Shown one piece after another: positions 2,121-63,260 of a DNA stretch of 64,000 nt. The notes under the pieces were generated by a model. The model searched no databases, was not told the DNA's origin, and worked only from the letters and a program-made list of their open reading frames with translations. The position numbers and the translations under genes were made by a program. How positions within the stretch are numbered: the first letter of the stretch is position 1; each line of letters starts with the position of its first letter. Source of the DNA: an uncultured Gammaproteobacteria bacterium (lineage in GTDB: Bacteria; Patescibacteriota; Patescibacteriia; UBA11705; DATKZF01); contig CAYPKD010000004.1 of the NCBI GenBank assembly GCA_964411255.1, forward strand, positions 94,037 to 158,036, written 5' to 3'.

Positions 2121-2201
2121 ATTGCTTGTATTTTAGCGTAAAATAACAAAAATTTCAATTCATTCTTATTAATATTTATTGCGTTAAACAAGAACAGAAT
2201 T

Positions 2202-2361
2202 GGGGGTCTGGGGGGCTGATTGCCCCTTGCAAAACCTCATAATCTTCATCGTCCCTTCGCATTTGAAGCCCCCCAGCGGTTTTTGGTTACTTTTTGGCGC
2301 CAAAAAGTAACTTGGCGCAAGCCAACATTGCAAAGCCCAAAGCAGGCATATGCCTGTATAG
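2202..2361. repeat. structured dispersed repeat, copy A (gggggtctggggggctgattgcccc ... cgcatttgaagccccccagcggtttttgg + palindromic hairpin + ggcgcaagccaacattgcaaag + terminal hairpin)
   Basis: Near-identical to copies at 44944, 55146 and 58147. Long-range stem ctggggggct/agccccccag; perfect palindrome gttactttttggcgccaaaaagtaac; terminal hairpin caggcatatgcctg. Confidence 0.8.
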
Positions 2362-2428
2362 TAAAAATGTAAAATGGGTTCTTCTTTATTTTTATTTATA
2401 ATCAAAAAAGACAAAGCATTGCTTTGCC

Positions 2429-4044: not shown

Positions 4045-4125
4045 CCCCTCCCCCTTTTTGAAAAGGACAATTAAGCTAACTTATACTATTATTGTATAAA
4101 AGTCAAGCTAATTTTACAAAAAATA

Positions 4126-4154
4126 TTGACAAAATTATAAATACATGCTAGAAT
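4126..4154 (+). promoter_or_regulatory. sigma70-like promoter (TTGACA-17-TAGAAT)
   Basis: ttgaca at 4126-4131 and tagaat at 4149-4154 with a 17-nt spacer, ~100 nt upstream of the 4258 CDS. Confidence 0.45.
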
Positions 4155-4257
4155 ACAATATTGTTCTTTTTCATTTTCCGCCTCTGCGTACGCCTGAAAT
4201 CCAGGTTAAAGTACAAGGAAGGCATGCTCGCCACAGTGCGAAGCAAGGAGAAATGAC

Positions 4258-4757: not shown

Positions 4758-5213
4758 TTAGAGTAGTTCTTCTAATTTCTGACTTTCATCATCAGTAACC
4801 AATGAATTGCGTTTAAATATTTCAATTATTTTCCGCTTAAATTTCATTTCCTTTTCTTTATTTCTTTCAATCCTTCTTCCAATCTCAGCAGCTAAATCAG
4901 CCAATTTGTTATCCAAATACATCTTATCTGGATACTGATTTTTTACTGTCATTTTAAAATCAGATAATTCAGTTTTAACTTGACTTAGACCACCTTCAAC
5001 TTTATCAAGCCTGCCTTCAACTTTATCAAGCCTGCCTTCAACTTTATCAAGCCTGCCTTCAACTTTATCAAATCTTTTTCCCACCTCTAAAAATCCAGTT
5101 TGCACAGCACCAGCTAAATTATCAATTTTTTCATTGGTTTTCTTAAATTCTTGTTTTATTTCCTCATCCATATATATAATTTTAGCACACAAAATCAATT
5201 TAGTAAATTTCAT
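4758..5213 (-). CDS. coiled-coil protein with heptad tandem repeat (GRLDKVE)x4
   Basis: 151 aa; protein repeat 'GRLDKVEGRLDKVEGRLDKVEGRLDKVEG' encoded by a 21-bp DNA tandem repeat. Confidence 0.5.
   Translation of the reverse strand: MKFTKLILCAKIIYMDEEIKQEFKKTNEKIDNLAGAVQTGFLEVGKRFDKVEGRLDKVEGRLDKVEGRLDKVEGGLSQVKTELSDFKMTVKNQYPDKMYLDNKLADLAAEIGRRIERNKEKEMKFKRKIIEIFKRNSLVTDDESQKLEELL
4991..5075. repeat. 21-bp tandem repeat x4 (coding, within the 4758..5213 CDS)
   Basis: ccttcaactttatcaagcctg repeated in tandem. Confidence 0.8.
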
Positions 5214-28065: not shown

Positions 28066-28374
28066 ATGAAAATAAAAAATATAGAAGATCTTGATGCTTG
28101 GAAGGAAGCAATACTCTTTTGTGAAATGATCTATAAGTTAGCAAACAAACTGCCAATTAAGCATCTACGTGCAAGTGCTAGAGGAGTTGCTGCCAACATT
28201 GCCGAAAGATTTGGTAGATATTTCTATAAAGAGAATCTACGTTTTTATGGTATTGCAAAAGGTTGCTTAAATGAAGTTAAGAGTGATTTAAATATCTGTC
28301 TGCGAATAGAATATATAACTCAAGAAAATTTAATGAGTATATTTTTCAAGCAGATAAGGTTGAATCAATACTAA
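28066..28374 (+). CDS. four-helix-bundle protein (23S rRNA IVS protein / Avd family)
   Basis: 'LDAWKEAILFCEMIYKLANKLP...LRASARGVAANIAERFGRYF...FYGIAKGCLNEVKSDLNIC' follows the TIGR02436/PF05635 family pattern. Confidence 0.7.
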   Translation: MKIKNIEDLDAWKEAILFCEMIYKLANKLPIKHLRASARGVAANIAERFGRYFYKENLRFYGIAKGCLNEVKSDLNICLRIEYITQENLMSIFFKQIRLNQY

Positions 28375-29501: not shown

Positions 29502-29540
29502 GGGAGGCTGGAAGCTGGGTGTAGGTTTAGAAGCTAGAAT
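29502..29540. repeat. left inverted repeat flanking four-helix-bundle cassette 2
   Basis: gggaggctggaagctgggtgtaggtttagaagctaga pairs with the reverse complement of 30035..30071 (gggatgctggaagctaggtatgggtgtggatgctaga), ~30 of 37 identical; an extra inner copy ctccagcttccagcc sits at 29968..29982. Confidence 0.7.
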
Positions 29541-29547
29541 ATACAAT

Positions 29548-29958
29548 ATGAACAATAACAAACAACCAATTAAAAGCTTTGATGACTTATGGGTTTATAC
29601 TGAAAGTTATAATGCCTCAATTATTATCTTCTCAGAAATTCTTCCAAAATTACCAGCTGAAGAAAAATTCGATTTAAAGGATCAAATACGAAGGGCCTAC
29701 AAAGCAGTTCCACGATTGATTGCCGAGGGATATGCTAAAAGACATCAAAAGGCAGGGTTTCAAAAATACTTGGACGATGCTAACGCAGAATCCAATGAAA
29801 TGATTGTTTGCTTACGGCAATGCAGGGACTTGTATAGTGAATTTATTGATAAAGATATATGTAAAAAACTTATAGAAATCTACACAAAATGCAGCAAAGG
29901 ACTCTGCAGCCTTTCCAAAACCTGGATGAGTTTTTCTAAACTTCCCCCAAAAAAATAA
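29548..29958 (+). CDS. four-helix-bundle protein (23S rRNA IVS / Avd family), second copy
   Basis: 'DQIRRAYKAVPRLIAEGYAKRH' matches the family core (RAA-SIP-NIAEG-GR); 136 aa. Confidence 0.65.
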   Translation: MNNNKQPIKSFDDLWVYTESYNASIIIFSEILPKLPAEEKFDLKDQIRRAYKAVPRLIAEGYAKRHQKAGFQKYLDDANAESNEMIVCLRQCRDLYSEFIDKDICKKLIEIYTKCSKGLCSLSKTWMSFSKLPPKK

Positions 29959-33884: not shown

Positions 33885-33968
33885 ATTCGGAATGTCAAAA
33901 TAATATTGACAAAATTACTAGCAGATGTTATTATATAAAATCGTTCTTTATAAACCCAGGAGGCAATC

Positions 33969-35143: not shown

Positions 35144-36337
35144 CTAGAACTTTTCATTTCTCAAGCAATACATCATCTGCCCCAAACTCAATCCATAATC
35201 TCCCCTCTCAATATTTTTAGACATAATTACTCCATTGTTTTTCGCAACTTGACTCATAATCTTATTATTTGCCATTCCTCCTCCAAAATATATTGGTAAA
35301 TTTGAATCAGCTTTTTTCGCAATATTAATTAGCCCTTCAATAACATATTTTTGAACAGTAGCTGCCAGTCTTCCCTTATCCTTATCCAAATTATCCAAAA
35401 GCCATTCAAAAAGATAAGAGATATTTAACTCATATTGTTTTTCAATTTCTCTGTTTCTCTGTTTCTCTGTCTTTGTGTTTTTCTGCTCTTCTGTTTCTCT
35501 GTCTTTGTGTTTTTCTGTTATCCTAGGCTCTAAATCAAACGGATCTGCTGATTTCTTCTCCAGTAAATCAACGGGCTCATGTTTATAATTTCTTTCATTT
35601 TTACAAAGGCCAAGTAAAACTGAGGCTGCATCCAGTATTCTTCCAGTACTACTAGTTTCTACTGAATTAAATTTTTGTTCGTACATTTTTACAAATAAAT
35701 CAAACTCCTCCTTTTTAAAAAACTTTTCAAAAATCGACCGTATTTCAGCCGGCTTTTTTATTTTTAAAAGTATTGAAAGAAGCATTCTGGCCGGCTCTTT
35801 TATTGATAAATCCGCACCGCATAATAATTGATTTTCCAAATGCCCAATTCTTTTTATTTTATCTTTGCTTTTTTCTTTTTGATTTTGACTGATAAGGAAC
35901 ACTTCACCTCCCCAAATCTTTCCATCAAGACCATACCCTGTACCGTCTGCTGCTATACCTATAAACTTGGAGAAGCTGAGTGTGGGTATAGAAGCTAGAA
36001 TAGTGTAATCAAATAATACTGAATAAACATGCGCAATGTGATGTTGTACTTTTTCAAGCTTTGCGTCATATTTATCAGCTAATTCTTCTCCCAATTTTGA
36101 GGTTTTATATTCTGGATGCAGATCAACACATATTATATCTGGAACAAAACTATTTTTTTCCAAAAATTCAAATATAATCTTTTTATAATTTTCAAAATTA
36201 TTTTCTTCAATCAAATCACCTAGATCTTCTTGGTAATAAATCTTTCCTTTATTATAAACACAAAAATTCCCAGCTGACTCAGGTCCTAAGGCTAGGATTT
36301 TTTGATTCTTATTAATCGTCACGTCAAACCCTTTCAT
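35144..36337 (-). CDS. HypF-like carbamoyltransferase, Kae1/TsaD-like domain only (no acylphosphatase, Zn-finger or YrdC domains)
   Basis: 'VQHHIAHVYSV' (the HHxAH metal motif of the HypF Kae1-like domain), 'IGIAADGTGYG', 'GGGMANNKIM...GDYGLSLGQMMY'. Contains a charged low-complexity insert encoded by a tandem DNA repeat. Confidence 0.6.
   Translation of the reverse strand: MKGFDVTINKNQKILALGPESAGNFCVYNKGKIYYQEDLGDLIEENNFENYKKIIFEFLEKNSFVPDIICVDLHPEYKTSKLGEELADKYDAKLEKVQHHIAHVYSVLFDYTILASIPTLSFSKFIGIAADGTGYGLDGKIWGGEVFLISQNQKEKSKDKIKRIGHLENQLLCGADLSIKEPARMLLSILLKIKKPAEIRSIFEKFFKKEEFDLFVKMYEQKFNSVETSSTGRILDAASVLLGLCKNERNYKHEPVDLLEKKSADPFDLEPRITEKHKDRETEEQKNTKTEKQRNREIEKQYELNISYLFEWLLDNLDKDKGRLAATVQKYVIEGLINIAKKADSNLPIYFGGGMANNKIMSQVAKNNGVIMSKNIERGDYGLSLGQMMYCLRNEKF
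35450..35520. repeat. imperfect ~35-bp tandem repeat x2 inside the hypF-like CDS
   Basis: ttctctgtttctctgtctttgtgtttttctg repeated; encodes 'TEKHKDRETEEQKNTKTEKQRNRE'. Confidence 0.7.
35972..36003. repeat. solo copy of the cassette-2 inverted-repeat motif inside the hypF-like CDS
   Basis: gaagctgagtgtgggtatagaagctagaata versus 29511..29541 gaagctgggtgtaggtttagaagctagaata (28 of 31 identical). Confidence 0.6.
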
Positions 36338-44798: not shown

Positions 44799-44943
44799 CT
44801 GAAAATAAAGTATAACAGATTGTATAAATTGTCAAATTTTGCTTAATCTATAAAACCATCTGTTTTATTTCTATATTTTTCAGTCTCTTATGAATATCGG
44901 GACAAAATCTTTTTATTCAGAACATCTTTTCATGTATAGCAAC

Positions 44944-45101
44944 GGGGGTCTGGGGGGCTGATTGCCCCTGGCGCGATAACAGAACTCAATCGAAGCTTCG
45001 CATTTGAAGACCCCCAGCGGTTTTTGGTTACTTTTTGACGCCAAAAAGTAACTTGGCGCAAGCCAACATTGCAAAGGGCAAAGCAGGCTTTGCCTGTATA
45101 G
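44944..45101. repeat. structured dispersed repeat, copy B
   Basis: Same core as copy A; variable loop differs; terminal hairpin caggc-ttt-gcctg; flanked by 'gtatag' on both sides. Confidence 0.8.
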
Positions 45102-45154
45102 GAAAAAATAATATTTGAATTTTAAAAAGCCTGCATTAAAAATGCAAACTCTTT

Positions 45155-46144
45155 TTATATGCTTTTATTTTTTTCAAAAATATCACTAATAACTTCCTCA
45201 AGTGAAACATCTTTAATATTCAGATCTTTAACTGGCAATTGCGCCATCAACCGGCTAATTTTATCCAATGAATCTTCCTGCGGAATACTCAATTCAGCTT
45301 CATACATTGAATGCTTTGTCACTTTACCAAATACCCTAAGTCTATTTCGATCTACTTTTTTATAAAAACTGATTTTAATATTTTTATCATTGCTATAGTC
45401 GTTAATGATTTTGTCAATTGATCCATCATAACCAAGCTTGCCTTCATTAATAATGATCAAGCGCTTGCACAAATCCTGCACATCATCCATGTAATGTGAA
45501 GTTAAAATAATGGTTGTCTTATTGACCCGATTATATTTTCTTAAAAATTCTCTGATCTTTTTTTGAGATACAACATCCAGACCAATTGTCGGCTCATCTA
45601 AAAACAATACCTTAGGATTATGCAAAAGCGAGGCAATAATTTCAAATTTCATTCTCTGGCCTAAAGAAAGCTTTCGAACCTGCACTTTCAATTGATCAAC
45701 CACATCTAAAAGTTCTGTCAGTTCTTTTAATCTCTTTCTATAAGGGCCTTCTGAAATTTCATACATTCTTTGATATAGATTAAAGGTTTCAATCGCTGGC
45801 AAAGTCGGCCAGAGCTGCTGCTTTTGACCCATTACAATAGATATTTTTTTCTTAAAGCTCTCTTCTCTTCGGCGAGGATCATGACCAGCCACCTTAATAT
45901 CACCTTCTGTTGGGTATAAAATCCCTGAAAGCATTTTTAGAGTGGTAGTTTTACCAGCACCATTTGGCCCGATAAATCCCACAAACTCGCCTTTTTTTAT
46001 TTCAATAGATACATTCTTCACCGCTTGCTTTGTTAACTTTTTCCTTTTAAAAACTGCTTTCAAAGACCCTTTCAGCCCTTCTTCTTTTTTATGATAAACA
46101 AAAGTCTTTGATAAATTTTTTACGTGTATTATTGATTTTTGCAT
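45155..46144 (-). CDS. ABC transporter ATP-binding protein (ABC-2 type exporter)
   Basis: Walker A 'GPNGAGKTT', signature 'LSLGQRMK', Walker B 'VLFLDEPTIGLD'. Confidence 0.9.
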   Translation of the reverse strand: MQKSIIHVKNLSKTFVYHKKEEGLKGSLKAVFKRKKLTKQAVKNVSIEIKKGEFVGFIGPNGAGKTTTLKMLSGILYPTEGDIKVAGHDPRRREESFKKKISIVMGQKQQLWPTLPAIETFNLYQRMYEISEGPYRKRLKELTELLDVVDQLKVQVRKLSLGQRMKFEIIASLLHNPKVLFLDEPTIGLDVVSQKKIREFLRKYNRVNKTTIILTSHYMDDVQDLCKRLIIINEGKLGYDGSIDKIINDYSNDKNIKISFYKKVDRNRLRVFGKVTKHSMYEAELSIPQEDSLDKISRLMAQLPVKDLNIKDVSLEEVISDIFEKNKSI

Positions 46145-47841: not shown

Positions 47842-48351
47842 TTATTCCTTGTTCAATTCCGTAAAAAACATTTTCAAAGCATTTTGCAAAGACTCTCGTA
47901 TTTGCTTATCATACTTTGGACGATCTATGGCGTTGCCCGCACCTAAGCGAAACCCAGCTCCATCTTCCAAATAACTGCACTCAATTTCCTGTCCATAAAA
48001 TGTAACTTTCCCAGTTTCTTCTCTTGGCTCTCCGTATTCTGCTTCAGCACCAACCTGATAAGAGCTTGAAATATCTATCAGAAAATCTTTTTTCCCAGCC
48101 TTTAATACTAAAAGTTCAAACATCTCTTTAATCTTTTTTTCCAAATCAGACACAGTAGCATAACCTAATGACGCCCTGCCCTCTTCAAATGCAATTATTT
48201 CATCAAAAAAAAGAGCAGTTATTTGCTCTATGTTGTTTTCCCCAAAATCTGAAATTTTTCCAGCTTGTTCATCTAATAAAAAATAATCATCCAGTAAAAT
48301 CTCCCCCTCTGCTGGTGTTTCTGGCCCCCCTTTTTCTGGATTTAATACCAT
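47842..48351 (-). CDS. acidic hypothetical protein
   Basis: 169 aa ORF. Confidence 0.45.
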   Translation of the reverse strand: MVLNPEKGGPETPAEGEILLDDYFLLDEQAGKISDFGENNIEQITALFFDEIIAFEEGRASLGYATVSDLEKKIKEMFELLVLKAGKKDFLIDISSSYQVGAEAEYGEPREETGKVTFYGQEIECSYLEDGAGFRLGAGNAIDRPKYDKQIRESLQNALKMFFTELNKE

Positions 48352-48526
48352 ATGTTTGAAGCTAATTTATGTACTTTTATTATATCAAAAAAATGCTATT
48401 TTCCAAAATAATAAGGTAATTTTAAAAAAAATTTTACCTGTAATTATCCAAGATTGAATAGCTATACTATTACTTTAACTAAGGTTTTAGCTTTTTTATT
48501 ACAGCTCAATCATAATCATCCCTTTC

Positions 48527-48660
48527 GTGGGGTCTGGGGTGGCCACTCAGCGCCATATAAAAAAGCGTCAAATCGTATTCATTGTGATAGCGATTTGGCC
48601 ACCCCAGAACTTTTTGGTTCTTTTTGGTTACAAAAAGAACAAGGCCGCGCGCCTAGCGCA
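48527..48660. repeat. structured dispersed repeat, diverged copy E with compensatory substitutions
   Basis: Long-range stem is now ctggggtggcc/ggccaccccag; hairpin is gttctttttg-gttac-aaaaagaac; both structures retained despite sequence change. Confidence 0.65.
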
Positions 48661-48777
48661 CCATGAAAAAACATACATTAATGAAAATTCATATAAAGGG
48701 TTTTATAAGAAAGTAAGCATACCCCATAAAAAAAACACTATTTATCAAAATTAAATAGCATCTTTGTAATTTATCGT

Positions 48778-49734
48778 TTAAACTGATTTTCTACTCATTA
48801 CAGCCTGCCAAATCAGGCTTATTATTGAAATTAATACAAACATTCCAATAATTACTGAACCTATGCCCAAAAAGAAAACAATTATTGAATCCTGCGGCTG
48901 TGGATTTGAAATAATATCAAAATTTTGGGTTTCAATAGCTGCTTGAAATTCATCTGATAATAATCCAATTAAAATTACCGGCGTGACCAAAACCGCATTA
49001 TGAATCAAATGATTGGCAATTGCCCAGCCAAGTCCAAATTTCATTCTGACAAACCCCAGTATCAGGCCAAGAATGAATTGCGGCAGAATTATAAGCGGCG
49101 CTAAAAACCAAATCTGCTCAAAATCCAAAAAATTAAATAAATGGAGCAGGGCAAAAACAAATGCTGCGCTGTAAAAAATATAATTAAACTTTTTTAAATA
49201 AAATTTTTCAATTTTTTCTTTTTTTACTTTTTTTCTAAAAAGAAATCCTAAAAGCAGGCCTACAACCATTATAAAAAAAACAAAAGAAATAATTCCCCAA
49301 ATTTGCGTAATTGAAAAAATCCACTCAGGTAAAAGAACTGCAAATCCATGCCAAACTTCAGTTAAAAGGCCAAAAAATATTATTAAAATAAAGGCAATTG
49401 AAAAACTTAAACGAAATGGCGAATACTTTAATCCCATACGAAAAGTCAGTTCTTCTGCCAATGGTGCCCAAACCAAACTAAGTAAAAGCACTAAATACAA
49501 TGGCTGATTTAATAAAAGATCAACAACTGCATGCCGCTGCTCATCATATTCAAAAATTGATAAAACAATATTTATAAAAATTCCGACAACAATGGCTATT
49601 GTCAAGAACAATGCCCAGATTCTGATCACATCCCAAAGCTTTGATCTTATCTTTTGCCTTGAAACCTCAATACCATAGTTTGGCTTAGTCAGAAATCTGA
49701 AAAAAGATATTAAAATACTGTTTTGTTTTTCCAT
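48778..49734 (-). CDS. CPBP-family intramembrane metalloprotease (CAAX protease / Abi)
   Basis: 'APLAEELTFR' (EExxxR), 'FALLHLFNF' (FxxxH), 'ANHLIHNAV' motifs; multiple TM helices. Confidence 0.7.
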   Translation of the reverse strand: MEKQNSILISFFRFLTKPNYGIEVSRQKIRSKLWDVIRIWALFLTIAIVVGIFINIVLSIFEYDEQRHAVVDLLLNQPLYLVLLLSLVWAPLAEELTFRMGLKYSPFRLSFSIAFILIIFFGLLTEVWHGFAVLLPEWIFSITQIWGIISFVFFIMVVGLLLGFLFRKKVKKEKIEKFYLKKFNYIFYSAAFVFALLHLFNFLDFEQIWFLAPLIILPQFILGLILGFVRMKFGLGWAIANHLIHNAVLVTPVILIGLLSDEFQAAIETQNFDIISNPQPQDSIIVFFLGIGSVIIGMFVLISIISLIWQAVMSRKSV

Positions 49735-53411: not shown

Positions 53412-55055
53412 TTATTCAAAAGTTACGCCTAATAAATTTATACTATCATCATCTTCGAGCACAATCTCAAATTTTTCCATAAATACTTGCATATCTGTTT
53501 TCAAATCTACCAATTTATTCTCCTGATCAAGAATTCTGGCTGATAAATCACTGACCAGCTCTCCATATTGATACAACTCATCTCCCAGTAAATCATCAAG
53601 CACATTTAAATCATTGGTTGTGCCAATAGCTTCTTTATTCAAATTCTGCAGCTGCATTTGTATTTCACTTAGCCTTTTTTCCAGACTTTCATAATTTTTA
53701 TAATAATCTTCCAGTTCATCCTTTGAATAAAAAGCCCGGTCTTTTTGAGACTGTTCAATTTTTTCTAATTGGGCTAAGAGTTGTCCAAGGTTTTGCTCAG
53801 TATTGCTAATCCGTAGATTTATTTCCTGCATTTCAGCTTTTAAATTTTTTAAGGTAATATCTCCATTATTTTCAAAAGTTTCTCCATCTTGCTGTAATTC
53901 ATCTGCAATATTTTCAATTGCCGTCTCGATCCGAGGCTTTGAAATCCTGGTATTCTGAAATATTCTATTTATTAAAAAGTCTTTTTGATTTGCATCAAAT
54001 ATATTGTTTAAATAAAAATTCTTAATTTGCTCGTCCTGCATTAAATTTTCCTTTATCTGTGGGTCAAATGCTTTTATTCTTTGAATAAATGGAAGTATTT
54101 GCGGATCAACATCCATTTTATTTATAATTGCCAACGCCTGATCTTTTCTGCCACTTTCAATCAATGCCTCTACTTCTAAAAGCCTTTTTATTTTTATATT
54201 TCTGACAATTTTTTCTTTTTGATATTTATCAAAAGCTGTCATTAATGAAATTCTCTCGCTTAATTTCTTTAAATTATAAAATTTGTCTCCGGGAAGCGGA
54301 CCGACCTGATTTAAAATACGCTTTCGTCTTTTAGAAATTTCATCTTTAAAATCTGAATCTCTTTCTAAATTATTTTTCACCCAGGATTTTTTTCTCTCAT
54401 CAATCCTTAATTTTCTTTTCTGAAATCGTGATCTTTTTAATGTTTCTATTTCATCAGCTGACGCTGTCTCATCAATTTTTACTGGCTGATAAATCAAAAC
54501 ATCTTCTTCATTGACTTCAACCTCTCCTTCTTCGTCAGAAACCTGGACTGTATTTTCAAAAACCGCCACATTTACTTCATCACCTAAATAAGAAACGTTA
54601 AATGAAGTGCCACGCACAGTAGCTACCACATTATCAGCCTCGACTTCAAAAGCCGCATCTGGGTGTAAAAGCTCCAATAAACGAGACCAGACTTGGCCTT
54701 CTTTTAAATTAACTTTAACTTTTGTCAAAAGAGGTGAATTCTCATCAATCACTCCCTTGGTAATTTCAATTTCAGTATTTTCATCTAGAATAATCTCCTG
54801 AGTATCGTAAAACACTATTTTAGCTTTTGAATTCTCGTCAGTTTTCACACTGTCACCCTGCATTAAAGGCATGTCTCCGGAGACTTTAATATAGCCTTCA
54901 CCGTCTGATTTGTAATAAACACTGCCCTTTTCCTCATAAAGTAAAATGGCAGGATCTTCAAGGTCAATTGAGCTTGCATAAGCTGTCATTAATGCCCAGC
55001 CGCCAACTCCAGCTATAATAATAATAATTAGGATAAATATTATAGATTTTTTCAT
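53412..55055 (-). CDS. FecR-domain membrane protein with a long coiled-coil C-terminus
   Basis: N-terminal TM; 'VSGDMPLMQGDSVKTDENSKAKIVFYDTQEIILDENTEIEI' FecR-like beta-sandwich; directly upstream of and abutting the CHASE2 cyclase. Confidence 0.55.
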   Translation of the reverse strand: MKKSIIFILIIIIIAGVGGWALMTAYASSIDLEDPAILLYEEKGSVYYKSDGEGYIKVSGDMPLMQGDSVKTDENSKAKIVFYDTQEIILDENTEIEITKGVIDENSPLLTKVKVNLKEGQVWSRLLELLHPDAAFEVEADNVVATVRGTSFNVSYLGDEVNVAVFENTVQVSDEEGEVEVNEEDVLIYQPVKIDETASADEIETLKRSRFQKRKLRIDERKKSWVKNNLERDSDFKDEISKRRKRILNQVGPLPGDKFYNLKKLSERISLMTAFDKYQKEKIVRNIKIKRLLEVEALIESGRKDQALAIINKMDVDPQILPFIQRIKAFDPQIKENLMQDEQIKNFYLNNIFDANQKDFLINRIFQNTRISKPRIETAIENIADELQQDGETFENNGDITLKNLKAEMQEINLRISNTEQNLGQLLAQLEKIEQSQKDRAFYSKDELEDYYKNYESLEKRLSEIQMQLQNLNKEAIGTTNDLNVLDDLLGDELYQYGELVSDLSARILDQENKLVDLKTDMQVFMEKFEIVLEDDDSINLLGVTFE

Positions 55056-55145
55056 AAAAATAAGTTTATTAGAAGTACATATAATTTACCTAATTTTATT
55101 CAATTTGACAACTTTTATTTAGAACTTTCAACCGTTTATAGAAAC

Positions 55146-55334
55146 GGGGGTCTGGGGGGCTGATTGCCCGATGCGCGATACCTGCACATAATCAATACTT
55201 CGCATTTGAAGCCCCCCAGCGGTTTTTGCCCAGCACCAAAACAAAGTTTGGTGCTGGGTCGGCGCAAGCCGAGAACCGTATGGTTCTGGGCAAGTCAACA
55301 TTGAAAAGCCCAAAGCAGGCTCCAGGCCTGTTTT
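55146..55334. repeat. structured dispersed repeat, copy C with a compensatory hairpin swap and an inserted hairpin
   Basis: Core identical; central palindrome replaced by cccagcaccaaa-acaaag-tttggtgctggg; extra hairpin agaacc-gtat-ggttct; ends caggc-tccag-gcctg+TTTT. Confidence 0.8.
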
Positions 55335-55446
55335 GAAAAAAGTGACCTTTGCGTTATTAATCTTTAAAATAATTTAGTAGCTATTGTTGTTTCACAAAAA
55401 AACCAGATGTAAATCTGGTTTTTTATATATCATTTGTATAAATCTT

Positions 55447-58008: not shown

Positions 58009-58034
58009 CCCGCTTTCAGAAAGCGAGTTTTTTA
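58009..58034 (+). terminator. rho-independent terminator
   Basis: cgctttc-agaa-agcg+TTTTTT. Confidence 0.5.
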
Positions 58035-58062
58035 TTTCAGATCAATTATTATATTCCCTATC

Positions 58063-58085
58063 GTGGGGTCTGGGGTTGCCATTCA
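58063..58085. repeat. 5' fragment of an E-type copy of the structured repeat
   Basis: cgtggggtctggggttgcc matches the 5' end of copy E; no 3' partner strand present. Confidence 0.5.
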
Positions 58086-58146
58086 ATTATATAAATAAAA
58101 ATTCACACATTGATGAAGATCAGAACATTTTTTCATTTATAGCATC

Positions 58147-58305
58147 GGGGGTCTGGGGGGCTGATTGCCCCCGGAGCGATCCTCAAACTTAATCGTTGCT
58201 TCGCATTTGAAGCCGCTCAGCACTTTTTGGTTACTTTTTGGTGCCAAAAAGTAACTTGGCGCAAGCCAACATTGCAAAACCCATAGCAGGCTCCAGGCCT
58301 GTTTT
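58147..58305. repeat. structured dispersed repeat, copy D
   Basis: Core as copies A/B; long-range stem partly degraded (agccgctcagc); ends caggc-tccag-gcctg+TTTT as in copy C. Confidence 0.8.
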
Positions 58306-58377
58306 GAAAAAGATTAAATTTATTTTTTCCTAAATAAAAAACCCTGATACTATAGGGATATAAAACTCGTAATTCAA

Positions 58378-59349
58378 TCATTTATTCCAAAGATTTATAT
58401 AAGACTGAAATTTTTTAGCTATCAAATCCTGAGCTTTTGATTTTGTAATCTTTTTTTCTTTATATTTTATCAAAGCATCTAAAAATATTGTCCGGCCAAT
58501 AGCAAATCCAATAATCTGATCAAACTTTTTGGCTGCCAAAAGCCATTGCTTAACTTTTTTATCATCCTCTCCCCTGCCTAAAAATATTATTGACGAGTTC
58601 TTTGGAATTACTTTTAAAATTCTCTTCCAGCATTTATTAGAAAATCCTTCCATTTTCCAAATATCAACTTTTACTTTTTGTTTTATTTCTTTAATTGCCG
58701 CAACTGTTCTGATCAATCGTAAAGTCTTTTCATAATTTCTTTCAGTATTTACCAGTTTTAAATCTTTGTCAGTTGCTGGAACTAAAAGCTCAATTAATAA
58801 TTTATAATTATTTTTTTTGCAAAAATCACTTAAACGCTTTAATTTTTTAAGCTGCACTTTATTTATTTTCTTATTTATAGGATTATACCGAACCAATGCT
58901 TTAGCATAATCTGGCTTAAATTTATTGATATGCCTGCCAAAAGCACTTCCATATTCAAAACCATATTGTTTTTGCCCGCTTTTCTCAGTGGTCAAACAAA
59001 TCTGAATTTTTCGCTTTTTTGCATCTTTTAATACTTTCGCACCAAATTCTTCATCAACGAGAATGGCCAAATCGTCTTTTTTTTCATACTTTTTATACAC
59101 CTTTAAAAATGCCTGATAAATCAATTCTTTCAGTTTTTCTAGCTCTTTATGCTGCTTTTTTGTTATTTTTTTAGTACCAATTAAGTGCTTTTTAAATGAG
59201 CCCCGATGGTCAAAAGGCATGATTATAAGCTGTTTTTTCATATTATTCGTATTATACCATATTTCATTCGATTTTTGCCTATTGACAAAATTCTCATTAT
59301 TAGCTAGTATGTAAATTATTAAATATCCATGTTGATTGCAGTAAAGCAC
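58378..59349 (-). CDS. hypothetical protein, possibly a DUF2090 / class I aldolase-like TIM-barrel
   Basis: N-terminal 'IIMPFDHRGSF' and C-terminal 'IIGFAIGRTIF' resemble the IolC C-terminal/DUF2090 family; assignment uncertain. Confidence 0.35.
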   Translation of the reverse strand: MLYCNQHGYLIIYILANNENFVNRQKSNEIWYNTNNMKKQLIIMPFDHRGSFKKHLIGTKKITKKQHKELEKLKELIYQAFLKVYKKYEKKDDLAILVDEEFGAKVLKDAKKRKIQICLTTEKSGQKQYGFEYGSAFGRHINKFKPDYAKALVRYNPINKKINKVQLKKLKRLSDFCKKNNYKLLIELLVPATDKDLKLVNTERNYEKTLRLIRTVAAIKEIKQKVKVDIWKMEGFSNKCWKRILKVIPKNSSIIFLGRGEDDKKVKQWLLAAKKFDQIIGFAIGRTIFLDALIKYKEKKITKSKAQDLIAKKFQSYINLWNK

Positions 59350-59622: not shown

Positions 59623-60381
59623 TTACTCTATTGAAATTGAAAAAATTGCTTGTGTATATCCAGTATCTTTTTCCTTATCTATTCCAAATGAAATCTTTTT
59701 CCCAGAGTCAAAATTTATATCTGTTTTAATCAAGCCTCTTTTTGCACTTAATTCGGTTGAAAATGATTTAATAATACCAAGTGTCTCTTTTTCTAAAATA
59801 TCATCTGGCTCAATGTTTGATATAATATACCAATTAAATTCTTCATGTTGTTCGGTGATACGATGTATTGAACCGACTAATAATCCTTTAATTCCTTCTA
59901 CTTCCAATATAATTTCCCAAGATGCTGGCAACCATGGTCTTCCTTTCTTGTCTTTCTTTCTTAATTCCTTTAGATCAAACTCTATAGCTTCTAAATAGTC
60001 TTTATTTAAACTTAATAATAACTCATAGGTAGCTTCATCACTTAACTTCACTTCTGAAACATTTTTTTTACGTATGCGTTCCTGATTAGTATCCTCCAGA
60101 AGATCAATTGGCTCTGTATTGAAGGCTGGTTCTGCACTTTCTTGTCTTTTTCTTTTCTTTTCAATTTTATCCTTTATCTTCATTAACTCATTCTTATAAT
60201 CCGTATAAAAATCCAAAGCCTCTTTCAACTTCCCAGCTTTTTCAGCAGCCACAGCCTTATCCATGATCTTTCCCAGAAATTCCTTTTCTTCATCAGTTAA
60301 AGGCACACGCTTAACCTCACTCCGCCGCGGGCGGGCCATTTGGAGTTGGGATTCGAGAGATTGGGGTTTTTCTGACTTCAT
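59623..60381 (-). CDS. paralog-family protein 1 (shared N-terminal helical domain, unique C-terminus)
   Basis: N-terminus 'PQSLESQLQMARPRRSEVKRVPLTDEEKEFLGKIMDKAVAAEKAGKLKEALDFYTDYKNEL' shared with three neighbours. Confidence 0.55.
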   Translation of the reverse strand: MKSEKPQSLESQLQMARPRRSEVKRVPLTDEEKEFLGKIMDKAVAAEKAGKLKEALDFYTDYKNELMKIKDKIEKKRKRQESAEPAFNTEPIDLLEDTNQERIRKKNVSEVKLSDEATYELLLSLNKDYLEAIEFDLKELRKKDKKGRPWLPASWEIILEVEGIKGLLVGSIHRITEQHEEFNWYIISNIEPDDILEKETLGIIKSFSTELSAKRGLIKTDINFDSGKKISFGIDKEKDTGYTQAIFSISIE

Positions 60382-60393
60382 ATCTTTTACATG

Positions 60394-61086
60394 CTATTTC
60401 ATTATATCACCTTTTATTTTTCCCTCTTCTTTCAGTCTTTCTGCTTTTTCAACTAATTTTTTAGTACAGCCCTCAATTATAAGATCGTTGCCAACATATA
60501 AATCATCTGGCAAATCTTTAATTGATGAATTATTTAATATTAGATCACCATCAATGCGAGTATTCTCAGGTAAAGAATCCATTATTGCTCCGTTCATATT
60601 AAGTGTACCAAAAACTCTAAGACCTGAACCTTTCCACTTTTTTACAACAGTATTTTTTAATATTAATGAATTACTAACTAACATGTTTGCAGGAAATTCA
60701 TCAATAATTTTCCCTGTTAAATTTAACATTTGTTTTGTTTCCAGCGCTGGAAGCTTTGATAAATCAAAAACAATCTCTACAAAATTTTCCTCTGTGAATC
60801 CAATAGCAGCAATCCATTCTTCTAGTTTTTCCCTTGTCCAAACAATTTCTTTCTCTTTTTCCTTTATCTTTAACAACTCATTCTTATACTCAGTATAAAA
60901 CCCTAAAGCCTCAGCCAATTCCCCAGCTTTTTCCGCAGCCACAGCCTTATCCATAATCTTTCCTAAAAATTCCTTTTCTTCAGCAGTCAGCGGCACACGC
61001 TTAACATCACTCCGCCGCGGGCGGGCCATTTGAAGTTGGGATTCGAGAGATTGAGGTTGTTCTTTTTGCATAGAGCTATTAGACAT
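60394..61086 (-). CDS. paralog-family protein 2 (shared N-terminal domain; C-terminus related to paralog 3)
   Basis: 'QPQSLESQLQMARPRRSDVKRVPLTAEEKEFLGKIMDKAVAAEKAGELAEAL'; C-terminal '...GCTKKLVEKAERLKEEGKIKG' similar to paralog 3; the true start may be the internal Met 15 codons downstream. Confidence 0.55.
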   Translation of the reverse strand: MSNSSMQKEQPQSLESQLQMARPRRSDVKRVPLTAEEKEFLGKIMDKAVAAEKAGELAEALGFYTEYKNELLKIKEKEKEIVWTREKLEEWIAAIGFTEENFVEIVFDLSKLPALETKQMLNLTGKIIDEFPANMLVSNSLILKNTVVKKWKGSGLRVFGTLNMNGAIMDSLPENTRIDGDLILNNSSIKDLPDDLYVGNDLIIEGCTKKLVEKAERLKEEGKIKGDIMK

Positions 61087-61109
61087 TAATCATTTGTAAT
61101 TGAGAATAA

Positions 61110-61823
61110 CTATGAAGGAATGATTACTTTTCCCTTAATTTTTCCTTCTTTTGCTAACTTTTGCGCTTTTTCTTTCACTTTATCAGAACAACCACCAACC
61201 CAAAAATTATGCCCGACATATATATTATCTGGCAAATTTTCAATAGCTGACCTTGCTATGTCAAAACTCCCTGTAACATGCGTATTTTCAGGTATGTGAG
61301 ATAGTTTTGCATTTTTCATATCACATGAACCTTTTACAGTTAATCCCGGGCCATTCCATTTTTTAACTTCCGCATCATTTAATAAAAGATGTCCATTAAC
61401 AGTTAAATTTGGCGGGAATTCGTCAATTACTTTACCTCTCAAACGCAGATAGCCTATTGTTTCTAATCGAGGGAATTTGGTTAAATCAAAAGTCTGTGCT
61501 GTATATTCTGAAATTGAAAAATCAGGAAATTCATAAACCTTTTCCACCCACTCTTCAAGCCTACCTAGAGTCCATATTTTTTTTTCATCCTCTTTTATTT
61601 TTTTATCCTTCTCTTCTTTAATCTTTAACAATTCATTTTTATAGTCAGTATATAAATCTAATGCTTCTTGCAGCTTCCCTGCCTTTTCCGCAGCCACTGC
61701 CTTATCCATAATATTTCCCAGAAATTCCTTTTCTTCATCAGTTAAAGGCACACGCTTAATCTCAGCACGTTTTGGTTTGGCCATTTTTAATTGACTTTCT
61801 AGTGATTGAGGTTGTTCTGGCAT
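61110..61823 (-). CDS. paralog-family protein 3
   Basis: Start set to 'MPEQPQSLESQLKMAKPKRAEIKRVPLTDEEKEFLGNIMDKAVAAEKAGKLQEAL'; the track start 61844 would overlap the upstream gene. Confidence 0.55.
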   Translation of the reverse strand: MPEQPQSLESQLKMAKPKRAEIKRVPLTDEEKEFLGNIMDKAVAAEKAGKLQEALDLYTDYKNELLKIKEEKDKKIKEDEKKIWTLGRLEEWVEKVYEFPDFSISEYTAQTFDLTKFPRLETIGYLRLRGKVIDEFPPNLTVNGHLLLNDAEVKKWNGPGLTVKGSCDMKNAKLSHIPENTHVTGSFDIARSAIENLPDNIYVGHNFWVGGCSDKVKEKAQKLAKEGKIKGKVIIPS

Positions 61824-61840
61824 ATATTTTAGGTATAAAA

Positions 61841-63205
61841 TCAAATCGTATTTATTCTCTTTACATAATTGTTTCCCTCCTTAGCAATTATATATATTTT
61901 ATCCTCATTTATTAAACCAAAATGATAAATTTCATCATAATCTTTACCAACTTTTTCTCCCTTTTCATTTACTACAAACCATTTGCCATCTTTTTTTGCT
62001 GCAAAAACAATTTTACCTCCAATATCTCGTGGATCTTTAACCTCATCATAATCGTGTCCAACTTTCTCCCCTGCTTCATTTACTACAAACTTTTTGCCAT
62101 CTTTTTTTGCTGAAAAAGTAATTTTACCTCCAATATCTTGTACCTGCCCAACATTATCATAATCTTGTCCAACTTTTTCTCCTTTTTCATTTATTGTAAA
62201 CCATTTACCATCTTTTTTTGCTGAAAAAGCAATTTTACCTCCAATATCTTGTGGATCTTTAACCTCATCATAATCTTGTCCGACTTTTTCTCCTTTTTCA
62301 TTCATAACAAACTGTTTATTATCCTTGATTGCTACAAAAGCAATTTTTCCTCCAATATCCTGTGGGTCCCAAATTTTATCATAATCTTGTTCAGTTTCTT
62401 CACCCTTTTCGTTTACTATAAACCATTTGCCATCTTTTTTTGCTCGAAAAACAATTTTACCTCCAATATCTTGTGCCTGCCCAATATGATCATAATCTTG
62501 TCCAACTTTTTCTCCTTTTTCATTTATTATAAACCATTTGCTACCTTTTTTTGCAGAAAAAGCAAGCTTACCACTAATATTTTTTAAAAAACTAATATGA
62601 TCATAATCTTGTCCAACTTTTTCTCCTTTTTCATTAACTACAAAGCATTTGTCATCTTTTTTTGCTCGAAAAACAATTTTTCCTCCAATTTCATGAGGAT
62701 ACCCAACATCATCATAATCGTGTCCAACTTTTTCTCCTTTTTCATTTATTATAAACTCTTTGTTGTTTTTTTCAGCATCAAAAGCAATCCTGCCTCCGAT
62801 ACTTTCAGGATAGCCAACATCATCATATTCATCTCCAACTTTTTCTCCCTTTTCATTTACTACAAACCATTTGCCATCTTTTTTTGCTGCAAAAGCAATT
62901 TTTCCTCCAATATCTTGAGGCTTTCGAACTCCATCATATTTCTTTATATCTATTAAAGCCACTATTAGTCCTTCATTATTTTCCTTTTCTTCTCTTTTTT
63001 TAATCTTTAATAATTCATTCTTATAATTCGAATAAAAATCCAAAGCCTCTTCTAATCTTCCAGCCTTTTCCGCAGCCACTGCCTTATCCATAATATTTCC
63101 CAGAAATTCCTTTTCTTCATCAGTTAAAGGCACACGCTTAATCTCAGCACGTTTTGGTTTGGCCATTTTTAATTGACTTTCTAGTGATTGAGGTTGTTCT
63201 GGCAT
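61841..63205 (-). CDS. paralog-family protein 4: shared N-terminal domain plus 11 tandem WG-like beta repeats
   Basis: N-terminus identical in 55 of 58 residues to paralog 3 (near-identical DNA); C-terminal '(I)GGKIxFxAKKDGKWFVVNEKGEKVGxDYDxV' repeated 11 times (WG/KWG-repeat-like). Confidence 0.6.
   Translation of the reverse strand: MPEQPQSLESQLKMAKPKRAEIKRVPLTDEEKEFLGNIMDKAVAAEKAGRLEEALDFYSNYKNELLKIKKREEKENNEGLIVALIDIKKYDGVRKPQDIGGKIAFAAKKDGKWFVVNEKGEKVGDEYDDVGYPESIGGRIAFDAEKNNKEFIINEKGEKVGHDYDDVGYPHEIGGKIVFRAKKDDKCFVVNEKGEKVGQDYDHISFLKNISGKLAFSAKKGSKWFIINEKGEKVGQDYDHIGQAQDIGGKIVFRAKKDGKWFIVNEKGEETEQDYDKIWDPQDIGGKIAFVAIKDNKQFVMNEKGEKVGQDYDEVKDPQDIGGKIAFSAKKDGKWFTINEKGEKVGQDYDNVGQVQDIGGKITFSAKKDGKKFVVNEAGEKVGHDYDEVKDPRDIGGKIVFAAKKDGKWFVVNEKGEKVGKDYDEIYHFGLINEDKIYIIAKEGNNYVKRINTI
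61960..62930. repeat. ~99-bp coding tandem repeat x11 (WG-like repeats)
   Basis: Periodic 'ttttacctccaatatc...tttttctcc...' units; generates the spurious F-rich antisense ORFs 61922..62956. Confidence 0.8.
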
Positions 63206-63260
63206 ATATTTTTAAAAAGGAAGGAAATATTTCATTCCTCCTTTTATATATATCATTAAA

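Follow-up and report, generated by a model that had tools for sequence, protein, structure and literature searches.

Copy E and its relatives, a family of covarying structured repeats in intergenic regions of Patescibacteria

The DNA analyzed here (the window) is a stretch of 64,000 nt from contig CAYPKD010000004.1 of assembly GCA_964411255.1, with a G+C content of 33.6%; it is part of a 365-kb JGI metagenome contig, Ga0309772_1000015. Five full copies (A-E) of a structured repeat were found in it, all on the plus strand, each standing singly and 3-43 kb apart, of which copy E (48527-48660) is the subject of this study. On balance, we favor the view that the large family to which copy E belongs, as an intact copy, consists of non-autonomous structured elements dispersed in the intergenic regions of Patescibacteria (Candidate Phyla Radiation, CPR). 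The family has a core of about 120 nt within units of about 170-230 nt, and no relevant description of it was found in Rfam 15 or in the literature searched by organism, concept and literal motif. A scan of the whole window against Rfam 15 at the gathering threshold returned tRNA-Thr as the sole match, and permissive scans of copies B, E and L054 gave chance-level matches only (<=19 bits).

Fold and covariation of the element

RNA folding of 48527-48660 (+) yielded -57.1 kcal/mol, compared with a mean of -36.8 +/- 3.9 kcal/mol for dinucleotide shuffles (z -5.2), and none of the 200 shuffles equaled it. The original prediction, made from the letters of the window, described this copy as a folded repeat in which a long-range stem (P1) and a palindromic hairpin (P3) are rebuilt from alternative pairings. 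The copy is indeed real and folded, and its alternative pairings are favored, with all pairs forming in the fold. The reverse strand also folds strongly (z -4.6).

Family members were collected with the pattern GGGGTCTGGGG-N45-75-CCCCAG-NNN-TTTTTG, for which we estimated about 0.5 chance matches; L070 and L084, judged to be unrelated G+C-rich matches, were excluded. A covariance model (R1) was built from 51 non-redundant members. The stems of these 51 copies are 91.6% paired, against 74.4% in shuffled and 47-53% in slid alignments, with a covariation score of 0.41 versus 0.11. The 104 distinct model-aligned copies, in an alignment that was fitted to the model structure and is biased towards it, gave 90.8% against 71.7% (shuffled) and 45-54% (slid), with a score of 0.44 versus 0.12. 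Some columns were fixed by the pattern, and the covariation signal comes from the variable ones. At the base of P1, U-A is switched to C-G in 13 copies of the 104-copy set and C-G to U-A in two. P3 is 99% paired across the family, with changes on both sides at seven of its ten pairs and invariant central U-A pairs, and the T5 and A5 tracts are strictly conserved. At the level of the alignments, these results show that the fold formed by P1 and P3 is real and is conserved by pairing while its letters change. The proposal that pairing, rather than sequence, is conserved thus agrees with the statistics of the wider family. Its stronger wording, that RNA structure is under selection, does not follow, because covariation cannot separate RNA from folded single-stranded DNA.

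The covariation shows the following architecture in the 5' to 3' direction: a G-run, a UCY turn, P1 around a variable GA-rich inner domain, a triplet, a U5 linker, P3 with its U5/A5 core, and the small hairpin P4. All features of model R1 were identified in copy E, including the G-run, UCY, P1 with a G4-6/C4-6 base, the inner domain, the triplet, the U5 linker and P3 with U5/A5 (Table 1). In relatives, the inner domain often has GA or GGA at both ends next to P1 and contains (A)GCGCC...GCGA(A/G)UU; no consensus fold for it was obtained from the model alignment or from a MAFFT realignment. Hairpins analogous to P4 come after P3 in most relatives. A closing helix in which the 5' G-run would pair with a 3' C-run, seen in copy E (GUGGGGU with ACCCCAU at 48721-48727), was dropped as inconsistent in copies A-D and elsewhere. 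A protein-coding reading of the two open reading frames (ORFs) overlapping copy E (48454-48666 and 48527-48754) was rejected because copies differ in length by amounts not divisible by three and their substitutions compensate each other in pairs. An assignment to tRNA or transfer-messenger RNA (tmRNA) was likewise rejected: the main local subfamily begins with GGGGCUGAUU, which is tmRNA-like, and ARAGORN gives only the tRNA-Thr.

An additional pairing connects the triplet with the P3 loop. In 69 of 90 non-redundant copies (chance 1/64), the triplet that follows P1 is the exact reverse complement of positions 1-3 of the P3 tetraloop; at least 18 different triplets are used, with AAC and GTT in copy E. 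These positions are 85-90% paired in the 51- and 104-copy alignments, with four Watson-Crick pair types per position. Flipped loops were found in four non-redundant copies, so that the P3 loop occurs in both orientations among otherwise near-identical copies (e.g. GTTA in copy E, 48627-48630, versus TAAC in L138_a, L138:2411-2582; GGCGGC versus GCCGCC, with loops GCCG and CGGC, in JBAZZT01), and the match is broken by the flip. Judged from the sequences, the flip is a DNA-level inversion of the palindrome center. Most copies keep the complementary orientation, which therefore appears to be under selection. The triplet and the P3 loop form a crossing two-stem, H-type pseudoknot topology. Since P3 is 10-12 bp long with a 4-nt loop and a third loop of 0-1 nt, leaving at most one spare base, the contact cannot coexist with a fully closed P3; from this geometry we infer an alternative state, or a tertiary contact that requires the top of P3 to open.

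The tracts flanking these stems also vary together. Among model hits recovered free of the pattern, the length and composition of the linker partly track the U/A tract of P3 (U7 with U7/A7; U7-8 with U6/A6; CUUUG with CUUUCC/GGAAAG), and the variant L164, with a changed tract and an unchanged linker, breaks this rule. The 5' G-run varies where the pattern left it free, and its length tracks that of the P1 C-run (Spearman rho 0.71, uncorrected for phylogeny), with five or more G in 27 of 46 copies having a C-run of at least five and in 1 of 44 copies with a shorter one. We hypothesize that the U-tract and G-run features reflect U.A-U and G.G-C triples, or alternative pairings.

Table 1 Features of copy E, copies of the element in the window, the insertion at the copy E site, and gene settings of the family.
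Feature	Position	Strand	Basis or remark
Copy E, unit conserved in its subfamily (leader, core and P4)	48492..48662	+	86% identity over exactly that span to L138:2411-2582 of a related genome
Leader of copy E	48492-48526 (35 nt)	+	Common to remnant F
5' G-run GGGG	48529..48532	+	Mirrored by the G-run of P1; cross-genome conservation begins here
UCU turn (TCT)	48533-48535	+	Just after the 5' G-run; sequence reading
P1 5' strand TCTGGGGTGGCCA	48533..48545	+	Perfect 13-bp complement of 48596-48608; covaries in the family
Variable inner domain, 50 nt	48546..48595	+	Internal loop, GCGC/GCG helix and two small hairpins in copy E; minimum-free-energy fold
P1 3' strand TGGCCACCCCAGA	48596..48608	+	Pairs with 48533-48545; covaries in the family
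Triplet AAC	48608..48610	+	Complement of the first three P3 loop bases GTT (48627-48629); complementarity and family covariation
U5-G linker TTTTTG, P1 to P3	48611..48616	+	In every pattern-matched copy, since the pattern fixed TTTTTG
P3 palindromic hairpin GTTCTTTTTG / loop GTTA / CAAAAAGAAC	48617..48640	+	99% paired across the family
P4, small G+C-rich hairpin directly 3' of P3	48642..48659	+	AGGC/CGCGC/GCCT or GCGC/GCCTA/GCGC; sequence reading
Copy E	Model match 48525-48644	+	96.6 bits, E about 3e-23, full model length 1-119; best of the five full copies
Copy A, main local subfamily, intact	2176..2367	+	Model match 2199-2314, 93 bits
Copy B, main subfamily, one G-A mismatch in P1	44917..45108	+	Model match 44941-45055, 88 bits
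Copy D, P1 3' strand with one mismatch and one G-U	58120..58311	+	Model match 58144-58258, 79 bits
Copy C, P3 swapped for an unrelated hairpin plus an extra hairpin; triplet-loop match lost	55119..55340	+	Model match 55143-55261, 47 bits
Copy F, E-type remnant with internal deletion	58028..58119	+	Retains leader, first 38 nt of core and 3' tail; alignment
Insertion with copy E, ~316 bp extra versus the empty site	48410..48725	+	~82 bp (5') and ~63 bp (3') beyond E unique to the locus
Left 26-nt direct repeat	48384..48409	+	Duplicate of the neighboring gene's terminator, overlaps the next gene's -35 box; 21/26 identical to the right copy
Right 26-nt direct repeat	48726..48751	+	Rce1-like gene terminator on the minus strand; the empty site has one copy
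Setting: antisense within a tandem gene pair			34/68 copies with both neighbors called
Setting: between convergent genes			17/68 copies
Setting: sense within a tandem gene pair			15/68 copies
Setting: between divergent genes			2/68 copies

Subfamilies, turnover and distribution

Local copies were defined by repeat finding, alignment and scoring of the covariance model at every position of the window. The original prediction had taken copy E for a local repeat with a drifted primary sequence. Sequence comparison instead identifies it as a member of a second subfamily, nearer to the family consensus. Compared with copy A (2199-2314), which is 5'-shortened, the inner P1 pairs of copy E are changed on both sides (G-C to U-A, C-G to G-C, U-A to C-G, plus extra pairs) and one A-U pair is missing from both P3 arms, whereas the outer C-U-G-G-G-G/C-C-C-C-A-G of P1 and the U5/A5 core of P3 are identical and uncompensated, and are likewise unchanged relative to B and D. 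The idea that both helices are kept with different nucleotides therefore holds for part of each helix, far beyond chance, but not for the outer P1 and the U5/A5 core. The 35-nt leader and the 3' tail are common to E and F and absent from A-D; the main local subfamily has an A-run at its 3' end. An E-type copy is present in a related population (L138), whose neighboring proteins are 77% (Rce1-like) and 94% (ABC ATPase) identical to those of the window, and the arrangement of F and D is also found at the orthologous place in the relative (L138:4656-4855). The 3' half of copy E is nearly identical to copies in unrelated metagenome-assembled genomes (MAGs; L065 and L017).

Copy E sits in a 426-bp spacer separating two minus-strand genes, a 169-aa ORF (47842-48351) and an Rce1-like/CPBP protease gene (48778-49734). 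The site is empty in a relative represented by four independent assemblies (L085-L088), where the spacer from the Rce1-like gene to the 169-aa gene is 85 bp and the neighboring proteins are 77% (Rce1-like) to 94% (ABC ATPase) identical to those of the window. The terminator of the Rce1-like gene overlaps the promoter -35 box of the next gene (TTGGAA/TTGGCA-N16-TATAAT; window 48385-48415, L085:3135-3170). The insertion of copy E duplicated exactly this shared terminator/-35 segment, so that both signals survive. At the orthologous site of copy C, the relative carries an E-type copy instead, with both flanks conserved. An empty-site comparison for copy B was given up, as synteny is broken at the ABC ATPase stop codon in the relative; this copy may be flanked by a 14-nt repeat (44903-44916 and 45145-45158).

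Two to three of the six local copies are decayed. As for stem disruption in other copies, a concern of the original prediction, broken stems do occur in D, C and F; across the family the stems are paired at ~91%. The disruption is more in keeping with a dispersed repeat whose copies arise and die out than with an essential set of RNA genes. No recurrent gene family was found beside about 200 copies. Collectively, these comparisons show that copies are gained, lost, replaced and decaying, and that they are tied to no gene family. The data favor a selfish or semi-domesticated repeat over an essential RNA gene set.

The pattern matches 83 stretches in a collection of species-representative genomes, nearly all labeled Patescibacteria (Dojka-, Falkow-, Parcu- and Peribacteria), and a looser pattern found more than 118 metagenome stretches among the matches listed. 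Viral contigs searched with the pattern gave zero matches. Model R1 recovers variants that the pattern misses. The highest copy load, up to about 27 matches, was observed in genome JBAZZT01, in which bursts of near-identical copies occur. This higher-G+C CPR genome (L006-L075, e.g. L055:4132-4678) also contains composite arrays, in which two direct copies at a distance of 337 or 431 bp enclose a diverged copy in inverted orientation (GGGGGTCAGGGGGG variant; P3 = GUCACUUUCC/GGAAAGUGAC); a ~36-nt module (ATGACAG..GTGAT..GCGTAGGT) recurs on one or both sides of the core. Copies with the full architecture were also found under record titles outside the CPR, namely an Oscillospiraceae-labeled MAG (L050) and "Gammaproteobacteria" MAGs (L008, L015, L019, L025, L041 and others); either these labels or bins are wrong, or the family extends past Patescibacteria. 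For the contig studied here, the repeats and the protein homologues point to Patescibacteria, and the nearest named Rce1-like homologue is from Moranbacteria.

Possible nature and propagation of the element

The copies show a strong bias in orientation. Of 80 non-redundant copies, 59 have a convergent gene on their 3' side (74%, p = 2.5e-5), the 5' side being random (38/78), and all five window copies are antisense to the adjoining genes. Selection against sense-oriented copies would account for this pattern: a folded copy may be polar if it is transcribed in the sense direction, in which P1 is followed by U5, and such polarity would explain the bias. The same bias could suggest a cis-acting terminator or insulator cassette that guards closely packed genes from read-through, with P1 then U5 on the plus strand and the complement of P4 then the U-rich P3 arm on the minus strand. 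We consider such a cassette unlikely. It would be consistent with the 3' side facing a convergent gene end in most copies, the under-representation of sense copies in tandem pairs (15 versus 34), the avoidance of divergent spacers, the strictly conserved T5/A5 tracts, and hits of a terminator scan at copies B and E, formed by the minus-strand P4 with GUUACUUUUU after it. An intrinsic terminator consists of a G+C-rich hairpin with a U tract immediately after it, located 3' of a gene on the same strand. The U tracts of the element, in contrast, begin 3-5 nt past the stems (3 nt from P1 to U5), which is poor for intrinsic termination, and the neighboring genes at E, B, A and D retain their own terminators between the stop codon and the element. 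A terminator would also leave the triplet-loop covariation, the 5' G-run and the inner domain unexplained.

In the family of dispersed elements that we favor, only copies with a foldable plus strand would be propagated, by machinery encoded elsewhere, and the fold would be kept for this reason. The folded strand is in our view most likely RNA, with single-stranded DNA also possible. The ratio of G-U to A-C is 11:4 in P1 and 6:1 in P3, and the plus strand folds better in 34 of 58 copies (mean gain 1.1 kcal/mol, p = 0.056), which weakly indicates the plus strand as the folded single strand. An RNA role for the element is plausible on these grounds. A related possibility, which we rate well below the favored reading, is a family of host non-coding RNA genes, in which a plus-strand transcript of ~100-170 nt, perhaps ending at U5 after P1, serves as a protein-binding scaffold or a regulatory small RNA and the fold is kept for a cellular function. 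The multi-helix fold, the pseudoknot-type contact and the GA-rich internal loops are typical of functional RNAs, the core sequence is conserved across distant CPR lineages, the onset of conservation at the 5' G-run is sharp, and the G-U excess over A-C favors the plus strand. Such a gene family is difficult to reconcile with an orthologous site that is empty in a close relative and another that holds a different subfamily, with the decay of 2-3 of the six local copies, and with tens of copies, in near-identical bursts, per genome of about 1 Mb; nor was a promoter signal found at a fixed distance.

Another candidate is a single-stranded DNA element, similar to REP/REPIN (repetitive extragenic palindromes and their derivatives) or IS200/IS605-derived palindromes. 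An enzyme of the HUH/Y1 type, or a different structure-specific one, encoded elsewhere in the genome, would recognize and move its top-strand fold. We give this explanation limited credence. The pairs are almost solely Watson-Crick, the hairpin loops inverted among near-identical copies record a DNA-level event, no promoter was found, and the copies are dispersed, orphan and intergenic. The short, element-specific complementary segments are reminiscent of IS608, in which a guide pairs with the cleavage site. On the other hand, no such enzyme was found beside about 200 copies or among the top 25 of the 63 families from 71 window ORFs, in which no RAYT (Y1 transposase), reverse transcriptase or integrase was identified. 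The architecture is also unlike that of REP, with one short palindrome, and of IS200/IS605 ends, with similar hairpins at both ends. Furthermore, Y1 transposition does not produce a target duplication such as the 26-nt one at copy E, and the copies are antisense to most genes, which would be the opposite of what insertion into the lagging-strand template predicts.

The flanking repeats may instead suggest a retro-element resembling a short interspersed nuclear element (SINE), whose plus-strand transcript would be reverse-transcribed into nicked terminator T-tracts by a reverse transcriptase acting in trans. Flanking direct repeats of variable length (13-26 nt) cover terminator-like hairpins at E, B, L036, L076, L052 and L072; priming on a T-tract would give an orientation antisense to the terminated gene, and the A-run of the main local subfamily, the 5'-shortened copy A and the internally deleted copy F would all be in keeping with such a process. 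However, the flanking repeat is undetectable in most copies, the 3' boundary of the JBAZZT01 copies lacks an A tail, no promoter was found, and no reverse transcriptase was found beside about 200 copies or among the 25 window families. We know of no bacterial precedent for an element of this kind, and regard it as very improbable.

Several observations weigh against the dispersed, non-autonomous element that we prefer. The segment inserted at E is ~145 bp larger than the conserved unit, and neither the ends of the unit nor those of the E insertion carry terminal inverted repeats. No regular target-site duplication was found, the flanking repeats being clear only at E and a few other copies and not above controls in most. 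No enzyme was identified either: all-against-all clustering of the ORFs within 2.5-3 kb of about 200 copies gave housekeeping genes, with no transposase, reverse transcriptase or nuclease. Blocks conserved between CPR lineages that are very far apart could point to a conserved host partner and not to mobility, and the conservation of GGGGTCTGGGG, CCCCAG and TTTTTG is partly imposed by the pattern that fixed them, which the pattern-free hits relieve only partly. With respect to RNA, G-U pairs are rare (~2%) and absent from the triplet-loop pairing of the 51-sequence alignment, so that selection on DNA fits too. Upstream of the G-run, neither a -10 box at constant spacing nor a positional -35 signal was found, only some enrichment of C at -4/-3.

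A bolder proposal, which we put forward as tentative and rather unlikely, is a new class of self-propagating, CPR-specific structured nucleic acid whose fold is the substrate of a trans-acting copying machinery that targets gene terminator regions, representing a new mobility mechanism or RNA class and not a variant of REP or MITE elements. This compact fold consists of a long stem flanked by a mirrored G-run and of a U-tract/hairpin module that an element-specific contact of three bases would lock, and it may include two triple-stranded segments. CPR genomes are about 1 Mb in size with very little non-coding DNA, and to our knowledge almost nothing is known of their non-coding RNAs and small mobile elements. 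The element is estimated to make up 1-2% of such genomes, as extrapolated from five copies in 64 kb. An elaborate fold that is kept across class-level lineages and has no Rfam 15 entry would be either a widespread selfish element with a novel way of copying or a widespread RNA with an unassigned job. The copy-specific triplet-loop contact and the possible triple-stranded segments provide concrete features for mutation, and the element marks recent gain and loss, which makes it useful for comparing CPR genomes at the strain level.

Comparison with known systems and other features of the window

In behavior, the element is nearest to REP/REPIN and to structured repeats resembling miniature inverted-repeat transposable elements (MITEs), yet the defining features of both are missing. 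It shares with REP/BIME/REPIN the many short, orphan, intergenic hairpin copies, the enrichment at gene 3' ends, the near-identical bursts and the retention of pairing while the sequence changes. REP, however, is a single imperfect palindrome of 20-40 nt with a conserved 5' tetranucleotide, often in inverted doublets, and is moved by RAYT in proteobacteria, whereas the element is a ~120-nt multi-helix unit that combines a long-range stem with an inner domain and a triplet-loop contact, and its window copies are single and on the same strand. The element is also similar to Correia/NEMIS, ERIC, RUP, BOX and Rickettsia RPE, non-autonomous dispersed repeats in the 100-200 bp range that fold on transcription, can influence the transcripts next to them and vary in presence or absence among strains. 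The MITE-like repeats differ in having terminal inverted repeats and short fixed target duplications (TA for Correia), each being limited to one genus or family; unlike a DDE-type MITE, the element lacks inverted ends and shows at best long, irregular duplications, and its distribution covers many CPR classes.

The order of strands (a short stem, a U-rich linker, and a U/A-tract stem whose loop supplies the second strand of the short stem) resembles that of SAM-II/SAM-V, preQ1-II, telomerase RNA and ENE-type triplexes, and the three tracts of the element are strictly conserved, as in triplex pseudoknots. In contrast to these, its third loop is 0-1 nt, its P3 has 10-12 bp with a 4-nt loop, and it is multi-copy, not upstream of genes and without an Rfam match. 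The ends of IS200/IS605, their palindrome-associated derivatives and omega/HEARO RNAs share with it a mobility-linked structure, element-specific complementary segments and the importance of one strand. The element differs from them in lacking tnpA, tnpB or iscB nearby and any Rfam IS605-orfB or HEARO match, in its unrelated P1 and P3 hairpins, and in the long target duplication at E. Integron attC sites were rejected: the sequence, as read, has none of the RYYYAAC...GTTRRRY boxes, single copies stand at distances of 3-43 kb instead of in cassette arrays, and no integrase is among the listed window families. Ribozymes were considered because conservation starts sharply at the 5' end, and the HDV-like (hepatitis delta virus), hammerhead, twister, pistol and hatchet types were set aside as unfit in strand order and unmatched by Rfam models.

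Apart from the element, the window contains other repeats. A near-consensus promoter-like 31-mer, TATTGACAAAATT...TAGAAT, occurs in three copies (4124-4155, 33904-33935 and 59280-59311), which may indicate the form of strong promoters in this organism; nothing resembling it occurs in the structured repeats. A separate 31-mer, GAAGCTGGGTGTAGGTTTAGAAGCTAGAATA, is also present in three copies (29511-29541, 35972-36002 and 54649-54679; 68-100% identical to the reference). ORFs of PF05635 (23S rRNA intervening-sequence/Avd-like four-helix bundle) were found at 28066-28374 and 29548-29958, at least 15 kb from any copy. As a linked protein this family was rejected: it lies upstream of elements in four other loci but is distant from all window copies. 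Further ORFs of the window encode hydrogenase maturation proteins (HypD, HypF and AIR-synthase-type domains, possibly those of HypE), as well as a CHASE2-cyclase and a protein with a LigD phosphoesterase domain.

In-frame tandem repeats were also identified inside ORFs, with an 8-nt unit (TGTTTCTC-like) and a 21-nt unit (35436-35523 and 4974-5078); as 8 nt is not divisible by three, a change in the copy number of the shorter unit could shift the reading frame. Nine tandem 111-nt units at 61817-63004, inside the minus-strand ORF 61841-63205, imply a protein with a 37-aa repeat, and related 240-nt repeats occur in the ORFs adjoining it (60146-63212).

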